Assembly: GCA_963422525.1 (NCBI GenBank)
Contig: OY730226.1
Location: forward strand, 515,844 to 579,843
Source of the DNA: Dehalococcoidia bacterium
GTDB taxonomy: Bacteria; Chloroflexota; Dehalococcoidia; Lucifugimonadales; JADFKI01
Length of the DNA: 64,000 nucleotides
Direction: 5' to 3'
The position numbers and the translations under genes were made by a program. The notes under the pieces were generated by a model, which saw only the letters and a list, made by a program, of their open reading frames with translations, made no database searches and was not told where the DNA came from. This document shows, piece after piece, positions 2,671 to 36,095 of this stretch; the stretch's first letter is position 1; every line of letters starts with the position of its first letter.

Positions 2671-3432
2671 CTAGCGCTTGTATGCCTTGATGTTCATGCT
2701 GTGGACGCGCGACGCCCACTCTTCCTTGCCTTCCCACGGCTTGTCGGCCACAATCTCGATGTCATTGATGCCCGCTTGGCGCATCCTGCCAAGATAGACT
2801 TCTTGTGGCTCTGCGCCTGACAGACATGCCACCCAGTTTTCGGCGTCGGCGGTCGCGTGCGCCGGCAGCGGCGCAGTGAGTATCATGTCCGATATGAACA
2901 TCCTGCCACCGGGCTTCAGTATGCGGTACGCCTCGCGGAACACGGCGTCCTTGTCGGGCGCTAGGTTGATGACGCAGTTGGATATGATGACATCGACTGA
3001 TGCGCCGTCAATGGGGGTGTTCTCCATCTCGGCGAGGTGGAATTCCACATTCGACACGCCTAAATTTGCGGCGTTGCCGCGCGCCAGCTCGATCATATCG
3101 GGCGTCATGTCCACGCCGATGACCTTGCCCCGCTCGCCTACCGCTTTCGCCGCGATGAAGCAGTCGATGCCGCCGCCGCTGCCGAAGTCGACGACAGTTT
3201 CGCCGGCGTTGAGGTCGCCGATGGCGGTAGGGTTGCCGCAGCCGGCTGACGCCATGAGCGCCTCGCTCGGCAAACCCTCAATCTGGTCAACGGCGTAGAG
3301 TTGATTGGGCGTAGAGCGTTCGCTGTCGCCGCAGCAGTCGTCGGTATCGCAGCAGCTAGTGGCGGACTGCGCCAACTTGCCGTAACGCTCGCGCACCAGA
3401 TCCTTTACGTCTGAGTCGGAATAGGTCGTCAT
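2671..3432 (-). CDS. arsM: Arsenite S-adenosylmethionine methyltransferase
   Basis: N-terminal [34 protein letters not shown] motifs. Confidence 0.88.
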
Positions 3433-3587
3433 TTTGGTTCTCCTTTAACCTGTTCATATATGCCTATTGCTATTTATGGTATTCCCTACAGGTGTTGATG
3501 CGCGCCCCACATCCTTAGCCTTCCATCATAGGGAGGTAGGGATGGAATACGCTCTCAATATGCTTGTCCAAGTAAATAGCGCCCCAT

Positions 3588-4028
3588 TTATCGCCGTCTT
3601 GCCTCCGCGGAAAACTCTGCGGTAACGATGGTGGCAGGGGTTGCGACCGCAACCGAGCCGTAGAGCGGTCAACGGCGTTTCCAAGTGTCCACGAGGTTTT
3701 CACCGTCGCTGTCGGCGATGCCCCACATCTGAAAGTGGATGCGTATGTCTTCGTAGAGTGTGCGCTCGGCGGGCTCGGCGTCCATGTCGCGATAGGCTTC
3801 GACGCTCACATCCATCCAATCGAGCGGGATTTCGCCTTCGGAAGCCAGCCGCTCAATCATGTTTACGGCGCATGCCGAAATGCCGGACAGGAACAGCTCG
3901 CCGGCGCCAATCTCCTCGCCGCCGGAGTCGTCGGCGACCCAGTGGTGGTTGCGCGCATTGCATATCGAGCGCCCCAGCGTGCCCGTGCTGTAGCTTCGAA
4001 CCGCATACGCCAGACTTAATTCTGCCAT
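3588..4028 (-). CDS. OsmC-family selenoprotein (146 aa; Sec at UGA 3669-3671)
   Basis: ELFLSGISAC first Cys motif; read-through gives WKRR-U-PLYGSVAVATP...* where U takes the place of the second conserved OsmC Cys (C-P-x-Y); SECIS-like hairpin follows. Confidence 0.8.
3639..3654 (-). promoter_or_regulatory. Bacterial SECIS-like hairpin for the OsmC UGA
   Basis: GGUUGC-GGUC-GCAACC, 14 nt 3' of UGA; resembles the apical stem-loop of the E. coli fdhF SECIS. Confidence 0.75.
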
Positions 4029-32393: not shown

Positions 32394-33115
32394 TCACCAT
32401 AGCGTGGGCTTGGTGAATATGCCCCCGGCATCGGTGATGGCGGAAGGGAACTGGGCTTTGGCGAGCGCGCTTTTGTTGATGGTGCGGTAGAACCATGTTG
32501 CCACATCCGCCAGTTCACGGCTGACTCTGTTGCGCTGATGTAGGTTGATGACGCTCACATCCTTGTGGAACTTCCGCCAGTTCACGGCTGACTCTGTTGC
32601 GCTGATGTGGGTTGATGACGCCCACATCCTTATGGAACTTCATGGAACTTCCGCACGACATAATCAATCGGGAGCGTTAGGTCGGAGTCGTTGGATATGA
32701 CGACCGCTTCATCGAAGTCATCGTCGAAGCAGTCTATCAGCAGCATCGTGGCAAGGTTCACATCGGAGCGCTTCTCTTCTGTCTTCAGTATCCGCACTCT
32801 TTCGGGCGGGTCGGATGGGCTGGAGTAGGTGAGCGGGTATATGGGAGCGGTTGTTGGATGAAAAGAGAAGCGCCCGTAGTGAATGGTCAAATGCGGTATC
32901 GTCTCCAGTGCCCTTAGATAATTATCCTGTCTGTCGGGAGCCTGCGGATCGTGCGAGTAGGATGCTATGCGTGCTGTGAAATACCTGATTCGGTTAATCT
33001 CTCTGTCAGGTAAAATACGACGGCACAGCGCATTGAGATTCAGCCACTTATACGGGGTGCCCCGCAGCGCGCCATAGTAGAGATTGAAGCCGTCAATATA
33101 GACATTTACGCTCAA
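32394..33115 (-). pseudogene. NYN (LabA/DUF88, PIN-like) RNase disrupted by 10-bp and 67-bp tandem duplications
   Basis: VYIDGFNLYY, EEKRSDVNLA, VISNDSDL motifs; duplications at 32632-32651 and 32506-32654; C-terminus ...FTKPTLW* out of frame. Confidence 0.82.
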
Positions 33116-33127
33116 AAGAAAAGTCCC

Positions 33128-33198
33128 ATAAATGCAATGACCACCCCGAAAGGTGGTCTTGCTACCCTGACCACCAGAAGCGGTAGGGGCGATGAACA
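33128..33198 (-). ncRNA. Putative two-hairpin leader RNA upstream of NYN copy 1
   Basis: Hairpin CCCU-ACCGC-UUCUG-GUGGU-C-AGGG, then GACCACCU-UUCG-GGGUGGUC; promoter TTGACA(33228-33233)-17 nt-TAAACT upstream. Confidence 0.55.
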
Positions 33199-33283
33199 TG
33201 TATTAGTTTAACCGCTTTTGCGCTCGGTGTCAATAGCAATTTTGAGGCCTGATACTGTCCCGGATTAGTAGGTAGAAGCATCA

Positions 33284-33344
33284 CCCTCACCCCCTGTTCA
33301 AGCCAGGGGCAGGCTCTAGCTCTCTCCCATCAAGGGAGAGGGGA
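33284..33344. repeat. REP-like palindromic element (CCCTCACCC...CTCTCCC-N-GGGAGAGGG type)
   Basis: CTCTCCCATCAAGGGAGAG palindrome; degenerate relatives near 31300, 51545, 56818. Confidence 0.6.
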
Positions 33345-33465
33345 TTATTGCACCACCTACCAAACATGGACAGCATCTTGAAGCCCGGCGAGGATAAACG
33401 GAATGGATATGATGGCATCGCCGTTCCTGAAAATCCTGTTCATCCTCTCTATATGATGCCACCCT

Positions 33466-34929
33466 CTAAAACAACGCATCGCTCGCATACTGCACAGCTC
33501 GCATTAGCGGCGCGGGATATACGCCCAAGATGACCATGCCCGCGAACAGCGCGCCCAGCAGCCCCATCGTCAGGCGCGGCATCGGTATCGAGCTTGCGTC
33601 CTCCACAGGCTCGATGTACAGCTGCCGCACCACCTGCAAGTAGTAGTACAGCGAAATCAGGCTGGCGAAGATGGCGATGCCCGCGACCCACAATAATCCT
33701 TGCGCGGCGGCGGCGTTGAACAGGTAGAACTTGCTGGTGAAGCCCACGAATATGGGCAGCCCCGCGAGCGAGAACAGCGATACCGCGAACACCAGCCCCA
33801 CCAGCGGCGCGCGGCGCGCCACGCCCGCCATGCCCGCGATGTCGTCCCGTCCCGTGATGTTGTAGATTGCGGCGAGGCACAGGAACGCCGCCATGTTCGT
33901 AACAGCGTATCCCACAAGGTGCAGCATCACCCCGTTGGACGCCAAATGCGACAGCTCCGACGAGCCACTGCCAACAGCCGCGAGCGCCGCGACGCCCATC
34001 AGCAGGTAGCCCACCTGCCCTACGCTGGAGTATGCCAGCAGCCGCTTCATATTGCGCTGCGCCAACGCCACTAAGTTGCCCAGCAGCATCGTTATCACGG
34101 CGAGTATTATCAGCAGCGTCTGCCACTGCTCCACGATGGGCATGAACGCCTCGGCGAACAGTCGCAGCGACAGCGCAAACGCCGCCGCCTTCGAGCCGAC
34201 CGCCAAGTGCGCCGTGATGGGTATCGGCGCGCCCTCATACGCGTCCGGCGCCCACATGTGGAACGGCACGACGGCAAGCTTGAACCCCAACCCCGCGACT
34301 ATCAGCGCCATGCCGAGTATCAGCCCCGGACTGAGCGCGTCCGAAGCGGCAAGAGCGGCGCTAATCTCATCGAACCTAGTCGTGCCCAGCAATCCGTACA
34401 CCTGGCTGATGCCGTACAGCAGCAACGCCGACGAGAACGCCCCCAGCAGGATGTACTTCGTCGCGCCCTCGTTCGACTTGGCGTTGTAGCGGTCATAAGC
34501 GACCAGCACATATAGCCCGAAGCTCAGCAGCTCCAACGATATGTACGCCGTTAGCAGCTCGCCCGCCGCCGTCAGCAGCAGCATCGCAACCACAGTGAAC
34601 AGCAGTATGCCGTAGTATTCGCCGGGATATTCGAGGTTGCGCTTCACATAGTCAATCGACGCCAGCACGACCACGATGCCCAGCGCAATGAAGAACGCTT
34701 TGAAGAACAGCGCATATCCGTCGATGCGGATAACCCCGCCATACAGCGAATCGTTCACGCCCCACAGATACGCAAGCGAAACCACCAGCGCCACGACCAG
34801 CCCCGCGACCGCCACAAACGGCAGCAGATACTTGTGCCGCTCATGCAGGAACAGGTCCATCCCCAGCACGACAAACGCCAGCCCAGTGACGATAAACTCA
34901 GGTAGGAGAAGAAGGAAGTTGTTGTTCAT
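33466..34929 (-). CDS. nuoN: NADH-quinone oxidoreductase subunit N
   Basis: SNEGATKY, FKLAVVPFHMWAPDAYEGAP, KRLLAYSS motifs. Confidence 0.93.
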   Translation of the reverse strand: MNNNFLLLLPEFIVTGLAFVVLGMDLFLHERHKYLLPFVAVAGLVVALVVSLAYLWGVNDSLYGGVIRIDGYALFFKAFFIALGIVVVLASIDYVKRNLEYPGEYYGILLFTVVAMLLLTAAGELLTAYISLELLSFGLYVLVAYDRYNAKSNEGATKYILLGAFSSALLLYGISQVYGLLGTTRFDEISAALAASDALSPGLILGMALIVAGLGFKLAVVPFHMWAPDAYEGAPIPITAHLAVGSKAAAFALSLRLFAEAFMPIVEQWQTLLIILAVITMLLGNLVALAQRNMKRLLAYSSVGQVGYLLMGVAALAAVGSGSSELSHLASNGVMLHLVGYAVTNMAAFLCLAAIYNITGRDDIAGMAGVARRAPLVGLVFAVSLFSLAGLPIFVGFTSKFYLFNAAAAQGLLWVAGIAIFASLISLYYYLQVVRQLYIEPVEDASSIPMPRLTMGLLGALFAGMVILGVYPAPLMRAVQYASDALF

Positions 34930-34999
34930 ATAACACTACGATACGACACGAAGCCTGTTTCAGGCAATTGTTGGGTGTTGTCAAAGAGATGTAAAAAGG

Positions 35000-35156
35000 T
35001 TGACGAGGCATCTATCCCGAATGTACTATGGGTACATACTCCCCCTATTCAATTCGCTGGTAGGGTCGAGGCTGTCTCCGCGGAGGCAGCCTCTGTTTTT
35101 ATGCCCGCTTCGCATCTTGAGATTTCTCGATGATTACGAATGTTTTATTTATTGAC
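35000..35156 (+). repeat. Upstream duplicate of the NYN promoter/leader cassette with a degenerate gene start
   Basis: 190-bp offset copy of 35190-35343: TTGACG..TACTAT, both hairpins, ATGATTACGAATGT. Confidence 0.9.
35036..35102 (+). ncRNA. Putative two-hairpin RNA, copy A
   Basis: CCCUAU...GUAGGGU plus GAGGCUGUCUC-CGCG-GAGGCAGCCUC-UGUUUUU. Confidence 0.55.
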
Positions 35157-35225
35157 ATACATTACCTCGCAGAGATGCGCCGACAACGCTTGACAAGGCA
35201 CTTATCCCGAATGTACTATGGACGC

Positions 35226-35292
35226 ATACCCCCCCTATTCACTTCGCTGGTAGGGTCGAGGCTATCTCCGCGGAGATAGCCTCTGTTTTTAT
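35226..35292 (+). ncRNA. Putative two-hairpin RNA, copy B, leader of the intact NYN gene
   Basis: Promoter TTGACA(35190)-18 nt-TACTAT; CCCUAU...GUAGGGU plus GAGGCUAUCUC-CGCG-GAGAUAGCCUC-UGUUUUU; compensatory change relative to copy A. Confidence 0.6.
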
Positions 35293-35319
35293 GCCCGCTT
35301 CGCATCTTGAGACTTCTCG

Positions 35320-35958
35320 ATGATTACCAATGTCTATGTTGACGGCTTCAATTTGTATTACCGCGCTCTCAGGCGGTTCCCTCAGTACAGATGGCTCGAC
35401 CTAGCCAAATTAAGTCAAGCCCTGCTGCCCTCCCATCAGATAAACCGCATACGATACTTCACCTCCATAGTTGACCAGCGCCCCGATGACCCTCTACAGC
35501 AACGCCGACAGGCTATATATCTTCGCGCACTGCAAACCATACCTAAATTAGAGATTCATTACGGGCAGTTCAAGACTCGCAATGTGTGGCGCCCTCTCGC
35601 CAAACCCGTCTCTGGCTTCGAAGGTTCCGTCCTTGTGAAGAACACCGAAGAAAAGGGCACGGATGTTAATCTGGCGACATATCTCATAATGGACGGGTAT
35701 GACGGCGATTACGAGCAGGCGCTAGTCATCTCCAACGACTCCGATTTGGCGCTGCCGATTAGAATGGCGCGCGACAGGCTTAAGCGGCCGGTGGGAGTTG
35801 TCAACCCTAATGTGAATTTGAGACGCGATTCCGCGCCGGTGGAACTCAAAGAAGCGGCGACATTTCTCAGGCAATTAAGGGCCGCCGCGTTGAAGAACAG
35901 CCAGTTCCCGGACTCGTTAGCAGACGGCGTAGGCGTATTCACAAAGCCTTGGGCTTGA
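35320..35958 (+). CDS. NYN (LabA/DUF88, PIN-like) domain ribonuclease, intact
   Basis: VYVDGFNLYY, EEKGTDVNLA, VISNDSDL, VGVVNP motifs. Confidence 0.9.
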   Translation: MITNVYVDGFNLYYRALRRFPQYRWLDLAKLSQALLPSHQINRIRYFTSIVDQRPDDPLQQRRQAIYLRALQTIPKLEIHYGQFKTRNVWRPLAKPVSGFEGSVLVKNTEEKGTDVNLATYLIMDGYDGDYEQALVISNDSDLALPIRMARDRLKRPVGVVNPNVNLRRDSAPVELKEAATFLRQLRAAALKNSQFPDSLADGVGVFTKPWA

Positions 35959-36054: not shown

Positions 36055-36095
36055 GTGGATGTAGAATAGGGTATTCCACTTTATTCTACATCCAC
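36055..36095. terminator. Inverted repeat between convergent genes
   Basis: GTGGATGTAGAATA...TATTCTACATCCAC (14-bp perfect arms). Confidence 0.7.

Follow-up and report, generated by a model that had tools for sequence, protein, structure and literature searches.

A conserved two-hairpin small RNA gene adjoins NYN genes of Chloroflexota and is a candidate type III-like partner of the NYN protein

Introduction

The locus studied here raises the question of whether a bacterial NYN gene is one half of an RNA-protein pair. It lies in a 64,000-nt stretch of a Dehalococcoidia bacterium genome (GenBank assembly GCA_963422525.1, contig OY730226.1, positions 515,844 to 579,843 of the forward strand), all of which is called the window below and supplies the coordinates unless another record is named. 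The window carries two genes for NYN-domain proteins, NYN1 and NYN2, and in front of each stands a promoter-like site followed by a unit of about 62 nt with two hairpins, the second of which has a U-rich tail. The original prediction, made from this DNA alone, likened the arrangement to a type III toxin-antitoxin locus. Type III loci (ToxIN, CptIN, TenpIN) run, all on one strand, from a constitutive promoter through the gene of a structured RNA and an intrinsic terminator to an RNase gene. We examined the RNA unit, its relatives in other genomes and its relation to the adjoining NYN gene.

Bacterial NYN (PF01936) proteins are abundant but functionally unstudied according to the accessible part of a 2017 classification of PIN-like domains (PMC5499597). 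In the accessible text of a study of the CRISPR-associated NYN protein of Bacteroides fragilis, that protein, of a subfamily other than ours, is a robust, sequence-nonspecific and Mn-dependent single-strand RNase in vitro and acts on repeat-derived small RNA (PMC11346440). Because a bacterial NYN protein is such a nonspecific nuclease, an unrestrained one is plausibly harmful. In the open literature, with subscription journals and supplements lying outside the search, we found no RNA partner of NYN proteins among titles and abstract openings, and no paper that joins NYN with type III toxin-antitoxin systems.

Results

Three RNA units lie in the window, each behind a sigma-70-like promoter site. 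Unit B (35225-35302, plus strand; genome coordinates 551068-551145) stands directly 5' of NYN2, with a TTGACA-18-TACTAT site scoring 10/12 at 35190-35219, whose position is kept in homolog loci, a first helix (P1) at 35233-35255, a GC hairpin (P2) at 35258-35283 and a U-rich tail at 35284-35292. Unit A (35035-35112, plus strand) is an upstream tandem copy with TTGACG-18-TACTAT (9/12) at 35000-35029, P1 at 35043-35065, P2 at 35068-35093 and a U-rich tail. Unit C (33118-33196, minus strand; genome coordinates 548961-549039) stands 5' of NYN1, with TTGACA-17-TAAACT (10/12) at 33205-33233, P1 at 33190-33164, P2 at 33158-33139 and a tail. Promoter-like sites were thus located where the original prediction placed promoters before both genes, and its short hairpin followed by a GC hairpin with a U-rich tail is borne out by folding: all three leaders form P1 and P2 (z-scores -3.4 to -3.8, with 0 of 200 shuffles equal), P1 is closed by C-rich and G-rich arms, and the three P2 hairpins are terminator-like. 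Promoter-like sites as such are not in excess across the 5-kb region (4 seen, 3.8 expected from shuffles); the window promoters carry weight because their position is fixed before the hairpins and kept in relatives, not because of their count.

The cassette before NYN2 is indeed duplicated at the 190-nt offset that had been claimed. Two 149-nt copies (34995-35143 and 35185-35333), 90% identical, make up a plus-strand tandem duplication (34995-35333) of promoter, RNA, terminator and the first NYN2 codons, and the P2 stems of units A and B differ exactly as described: an A-U pair in one stem is G-C in the other, and a U-A pair has become U-G. The hairpin and U-rich tail of units B and C end 28-36 nt before the start codon, on the same strand as the gene, which is the type III layout. 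As for the repeats that type III antitoxins carry in tandem within one transcript, units A and B of the window are both complete, stand 190 nt apart and have a promoter and terminator each, while true arrays were seen solely in the Escherichia coli plasmid relatives described below.

Both genes encode NYN proteins, as had been proposed. They match Pfam NYN (PF01936) with E values of 1.3e-7 and 3.6e-8 and scores of 32.7 and 34.5 bits (the curated threshold is 24.2), and they match the PADLOC profile of the candidate defence gene HEC-09 (PDLC04163) with E values of 1.3e-38 (NYN2) and 9.1e-36 (NYN1). NYN2 (35320-35958, plus strand) is intact and encodes 212 amino acids; its AlphaFold model has a predicted local distance difference test score (pLDDT) of 90.5, and the best Foldseek matches of the model are LabA-like 2qip and the MARF1 NYN domains 5yaa and 6fdl. 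This likeness was seen by fold search; a sequence search of the PDB with the NYN profile gave no match. HEC-09 has a MARF1-like NYN fold with conserved aspartates according to the available portion of the report on it (bioRxiv 10.1101/2024.01.29.577857), and five aspartates (D8, D115, D125, D140 and D142), invariant in 41 homologs, are putative active-site residues by comparison with that description rather than by superposition. NYN1 is 50% identical to NYN2 over residues 1-150 and is disrupted. It begins with TTG at 33115 as a truncated frame (32630-33115, minus strand), a 67-nt tandem duplication in the coding sequence (32503-32636, minus strand, 94% identity, with the duplicated peptide stretch visible) throws it out of frame, and a C-terminal remnant (32406-32552, minus strand), read in a different frame, matches NYN2 residues 160-210.

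The unit is strongly conserved. We took the 80 loci with the closest NYN homologs from species-representative genomes, all Chloroflexota, and found the unit of about 62 nt upstream of the gene in every one of them, 59-139 nt before it (two regular-expression passes recovered 79 and 78 loci, 80 in union). These loci represent about 42 distinct flank contexts, and distant ones are alike solely in promoter, RNA and NYN gene. In an alignment of 84 units, 95.1% of cells were paired, compared to 38-53% when the partners were slid, and 113 double-change cells were counted, compared to 22.8 in shuffles; compensatory changes affected 12 of 18 pairs (8/9 in P2 and 4/9 in P1). The hairpin that the original prediction expected upstream of homologs is conserved there, with covariation in both helices. 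Promoters scoring at least 9/12 preceded 69 of the 84 units but only 7 of 84 shuffled sequences; TTGACA was present in 56/84 and a 17-nt spacer in 63/84. Tandem arrangements in which every unit keeps a promoter of its own evolved repeatedly, at periods of about 84 to 190 nt. In the search of Rfam 15 that the original prediction had proposed, no family matched the window leaders (E up to 10) or 11 further loci (E up to 1), and the sole match near those loci was RNAI of ColE1-type replicons.

To follow the unit across genomes we used a covariance model (R1) trained solely on same-strand leaders, which matched units B, A and C with 64, 63.1 and 48.3 bits. Four NYN paralogs are encoded in the source genome, a single contig of 2.71 Mb; the third has the same promoter, P1 and P2 leader and the fourth has none upstream. 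Over the whole genome R1 gave 4 matches, all beside NYN genes, and an exhaustive nhmmer scan agreed, with 4+2 significant matches, all beside the four NYN genes. At least 48 of the 151 genomes in a sample of the class had an R1 match at E up to 0.001, and at least 28 of the 151 in a sample of the phylum had one at E up to 1e-6 (26/149 when two unpublished genomes, G185 and G282, which no other claim uses, are set aside); these tallies are lower bounds in that part of the candidates was scored. It is very probable that this unit, with its conserved helices and its link to NYN genes, is a genuine small-RNA gene and that its product acts together with the NYN protein.

How the two work together is a separate matter, and the position of the unit bears on it first. 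The simplest view would make the element a purely cis-acting 5' leader, either an attenuator or an operator hairpin that lets the NYN protein repress or cut the mRNA from which it is made. Autoregulatory 5' leaders of this kind precede the RNase genes rne, rnc and pnp of E. coli, and the same-strand arrangement resembles them in having a conserved hairpin between promoter and RNase gene. Units of the window's subfamily share the strand of the gene, and in the 80 homolog loci the median distance from the end of P2 to the start codon is 22 nt. A protein bound there could get in the way of the ribosome, and P2 would curb transcription.

A second NYN subfamily shows a different gene order. It was sampled as 80 metagenomic loci, the class sample holding too few, and none of these loci was in the training set of R1. 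R1 nevertheless matched a unit at 71 of the 80, of which 69 lay upstream on the opposite strand, divergent from NYN and about 85-160 nt away, and 2 were convergent; those inspected had consensus promoters of their own. An independent MAFFT alignment of 56 of these units showed compensatory changes in 14 of 17 pairs. The fourth paralog of the source genome, outside the window (genome about 466750-466990; positions 2109-2351 of locus L004), has two tandem opposite-strand units of the second-subfamily type that converge on its stop codon, each with TTGACA-17-TAAAGT, P1, P2 and a U-rich tail; R1 with filters off pointed to a unit here, and reading of the stretch showed the two. Convergent units were likewise seen at L114, beside the NYN gene of a Paenarthrobacter plasmid (40.9 bits, with its own promoter-like site), and at the NYN 3' end in the Mycobacterium abscessus prophage prophiGD43A-1 (51.7 bits; L238, record 3279-3968). 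Gene 6 of that prophage, annotated as hypothetical, is the NYN homolog (43.6% identity) and adjoins two helix-turn-helix repressor-like genes.

A position in the 5' untranslated region, which an attenuator or riboswitch would occupy in all members, is thus not what is found, given 69 divergent and 2 convergent units among 80. The conserved feature is a small RNA gene adjoining the NYN gene in any orientation. A divergent or convergent RNA cannot belong to the NYN mRNA, and the freedom of orientation argues for a trans-acting partner rather than an attenuator. The prediction that the RNA is a NYN leader therefore stands for the same-strand unit at 80/80 homolog loci and fails for the second subfamily, where the RNA gene is independent. 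Autoregulatory RNase leaders differ from the present unit, which is terminator-ended, keeps its own promoter in tandem arrays and in many relatives is found behind the NYN gene or on the other strand. Inspection showed no antiterminator fold that would compete with P2 by overlapping it. On the strength of the opposite-strand arrangements we rejected a 5' leader acting by attenuation or self-cleavage as a general explanation, and a purely cis-acting element appears distinctly improbable to us, though a cis role may coexist with a trans role where the unit is on the same strand.

The small RNA might instead pair with the NYN mRNA, as a type I-like antisense antitoxin would; divergent, non-overlapping pairs of small RNA and toxin gene are known for type I (tisB/istR-1, zor/orz), and the 5' end of the RNA is C-rich. 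In a crude test over 53 loci, however, cognate and non-cognate duplexes of RNA and mRNA were predicted at -37.2 and -37.0 kcal/mol (p = 0.44), almost all conserved bases are inside helices, and the target would be an enzyme of 200 amino acids rather than a small membrane peptide, so we hold antisense pairing to be extremely improbable.

The fate of the two partners when one is lost was read from the class sample. Of the 58 strong R1 matches (at least 38 bits), 22 stood before an intact NYN gene and 9 before one that was broken or partial; for the other 27 the NYN profile detected no NYN gene within 900 nt, which leaves 36 of 58 without an intact gene. Units beside dead NYN genes reach top scores of about 82 bits, which is near-consensus. 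Twenty regions covering the 27 matches were inspected: seven solo loci hold N-terminal NYN remnants (L094, L095, L098, L107, L108, L111 and L112), at L097 the unit precedes another NYN subfamily, four have nothing recognisable, and the others precede unrelated genes (RelA/SpoT, DUF3800, SDR, parts of an ADP-forming acyl-CoA synthetase, a Na/H exchanger and a GSDH-like gene). Syntenic regions, when compared, are consistent with NYN having been deleted or having decayed while the RNA was retained. Conversely, all 25 intact close-family NYN genes in the 151 genomes had an adjoining RNA unit: 18 an R1 match upstream, 5 a divergent version of the unit upstream (spotted by eye and confirmed by R1 with filters off), and 2, from one genus, a unit 58-62 nt past the gene. 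RNA without NYN is therefore common and NYN without RNA rare, as a toxin-antitoxin pair predicts.

At the solo locus L096 (G138:C1:414560-419000) three tandem units, each with a promoter, stand directly before a full-length RelA/SpoT gene, with a fourth unit about 900 nt further upstream and no NYN gene at the locus. At L112 (624-1850) a solo unit is followed by an N-terminal NYN remnant, about 100 residues long, that continues in frame into a ribose-phosphate pyrophosphokinase gene.

Solo units or arrays before unrelated housekeeping genes (with prs in addition to RelA/SpoT, the acyl-CoA synthetase parts, SDR, the Na/H exchanger and the GSDH-like gene) are what one would expect if the unit were a portable promoter-terminator cassette or the relic of a mobile-element end with no functional tie to NYN, and in eight sampled genomes that have units (G008, G020, G066, G070, G076, G102, G109 and G137) no intact NYN gene was found with the profile. 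Such a passive element would not account for helices kept by compensatory changes, for a unit kept beside NYN in Chloroflexota, Actinomycetota and, more weakly, on plasmids of Proteobacteria in all three orientations, or for the seven solo loci with NYN remnants and a synteny that fits NYN deletion; we judge it highly improbable. A regulon or riboswitch was also considered and dropped: the genes behind solo units have no common theme, seven of these loci carry NYN remnants, and the unit has no ligand-type junction.

Relatives on plasmids and phages show the same association in other forms. NYN2 homologs occur in 418 of 72,556 plasmid records and 3 of 50,697 phage records, from which 10 plasmid loci (L113-L122) and one prophage were read. 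In ColE1-type E. coli plasmids of 4.6 kb, a promoter-like site is followed by 4-5 tandem repeats of 29-33 nt, each with a 7-bp hairpin, a strong terminator, a Shine-Dalgarno sequence and then NYN. The number of repeats varies among near-identical plasmids, and two have a fifth unit, a different one duplicated in each. On a Phaeobacter plasmid a single such hairpin and a terminator precede NYN. R1 matched the E. coli and Phaeobacter elements weakly (19-23 bits), and more distant plasmid NYN genes (from Klebsiella, Pseudomonas, Aeromonas, Xanthomonas and Salmonella) have a different structured stretch and a terminator directly before the start codon. The RNA unit recurs in Chloroflexota and in Actinomycetota, where it is found on plasmid and prophage, and a related form is present on proteobacterial plasmids.

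Several other observations concern the window itself. First, neither NYN1 nor NYN2 has a visible Shine-Dalgarno-like sequence before its start, as the original prediction stated, yet this is a local trait because 61 of the 80 homolog loci have one; TTG is the start codon in 51 of the 80. Second, a short upstream frame begins right after the P2 U-rich tail (35291-35323, and 33129-33112 on the minus strand) and its TGA overlaps the NYN start, as ATGA at NYN2 and TTGA at NYN1, and at L009 and L011 an ATG at the same place opens a different short frame ending at or just past the NYN start; such frames may serve translational coupling in a clade without Shine-Dalgarno sequences. Third, a 49-amino-acid open frame (35130-35279) that starts with the duplicated first codons of NYN2 and crosses unit B is a leftover of the 190-nt duplication and no gene. 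Fourth, NYN1 and NYN2 point away from each other with a single gene between them, a nuoN-like gene (33466-34929, minus strand; Pfam Proton_antipo_M) that has no nuo neighbour on the side read. Lastly, NYN2 and the gene that follows it converge, and between their ends there is a perfect 14-bp inverted repeat with a 13-nt loop and no U-tract (36055-36095).

Discussion

We propose that an independent small RNA binds the NYN RNase directly and holds it in check, in the manner of a type III pair, and we give this an even chance. In the model, a strong constitutive promoter would drive a transcript of about 60-65 nt composed of P1, a short linker, the GC hairpin P2 and a U-rich tail, and P2 with its tail would end most transcripts. 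In the window's subfamily the NYN RNase would then be made solely from the minority of transcripts that read through P2. An RNA gene with a terminator upstream on the same strand implies that NYN comes only from read-through, and hence that the RNA would be in large excess over the protein. The RNA would keep the nuclease inactive by binding it, as in a type III toxin-antitoxin pair, and loss of the RNA supply would free the RNase. We prefer an inhibitory role because of the strong promoter, the throttling terminator, the repeated and independent tandem amplification and the ToxIN-like arrays on plasmids. What we observed is the RNA unit with its fold, the promoter before it, its multiplication in tandem and its link to NYN genes alone, whatever the orientation; from this we infer a discrete transcript, its binding to and inhibition of the protein, and the toxicity of the protein.

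The RNA could instead be needed for nuclease function, within a stable ribonucleoprotein in which it would serve NYN as cofactor, scaffold or specificity subunit. Its strict adjacency to NYN whatever the orientation, the joint divergence of RNA and protein subfamilies and the 25 of 25 intact NYN genes with an adjoining unit would suit such a role. The conserved parts of the RNA are the helices P1 and P2, however, with no variable guide-like stretch apparent in the unit alignments; repeated amplification and a terminator that limits NYN imply an excess of RNA that a 1:1 cofactor would not need; and near-consensus units persist beside dead NYN genes. We regard a cofactor role as unlikely, if still credible.

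Several results speak against an RNA antitoxin. The asymmetry between RNA and NYN losses, together with their linkage, would also fit a required cofactor, and the eight genomes with units and no intact NYN gene indicate that retention of the RNA does not always need a toxin to neutralise. The Chloroflexota RNA unit is single rather than a processed repeat array, and its U-tail is modest, typically 6 U in 9 nt, and absent in the variants L047, L077 and L131. Among the plasmid and prophage loci, the NYN gene of a Mycobacterium plasmid (L120) has no unit within 500 nt. Finally, the sole HEC-09 representative with a published test, whose clone included the native promoter region, did not protect against the phages used, according to the accessible part of the report (bioRxiv 10.1101/2024.01.29.577857).

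Compared with known type III systems, the likeness includes the same-strand order of promoter, structured RNA, terminator and RNase in the window's subfamily, the RNA repeats of about 30 nt that E. coli plasmid relatives carry in tandem, as in ToxIN, and modules that are multicopy, plasmid-borne and decay-prone. The type III-like layout of the original prediction is upheld to this extent, as it recurs and extends to plasmid repeat arrays, and it is qualified by the toxin, which has a NYN (PIN-like) fold rather than the ToxN/Kid-like fold of the known families. This places the module outside the ToxIN, CptIN and TenpIN families. Chloroflexota units further differ in that each has its own promoter and terminator and is not cut from a repeat array, and in the second NYN subfamily the RNA gene is divergent or convergent, an arrangement which, to our knowledge, is not found at type III loci. 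A non-ToxN protein with an RNA regulator, AbiF of Clostridioides difficile, is reportedly placed under the type III heading; it belongs to another protein family.

The module can also be set beside NYN systems described by others. Its NYN genes match HEC-09, a gene that the accessible text of its report treats as a single protein gene with no mention of an RNA (bioRxiv 10.1101/2024.01.29.577857). As in B. fragilis, a small bacterial NYN protein is linked with a small RNA; here, however, there is no CRISPR array or cas gene, the NYN subfamily is another one, and the RNA is a fixed two-hairpin unit without spacers (PMC11346440, in its accessible part).

At its broadest, the proposal would be a new multi-phylum RNA-protein toxin-antitoxin or defence module in which a constitutive two-hairpin small RNA of about 60 nt, or on enterobacterial plasmids a tandem array of hairpins, directly neutralises a NYN/PIN-like RNase; this is a tentative claim, a little more apt to fail than to hold. 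Its defence part is unsupported, the published test of HEC-09 having been negative. If true, type III-like systems would for the first time include a toxin without the ToxN fold; the order of the genes would be free (same-strand, divergent or convergent), and the small RNA would be the missing component of HEC-09. For bacterial NYN genes at large, the adjoining structured RNA offers a concrete and cheap hypothesis for their control, one that the 4.6-kb E. coli plasmids make directly testable. Should the RNA be an antitoxin, type III systems would extend beyond ToxN-like toxins and beyond one set order of genes, and annotation would have missed one partner of hundreds of plasmid and chromosomal modules.

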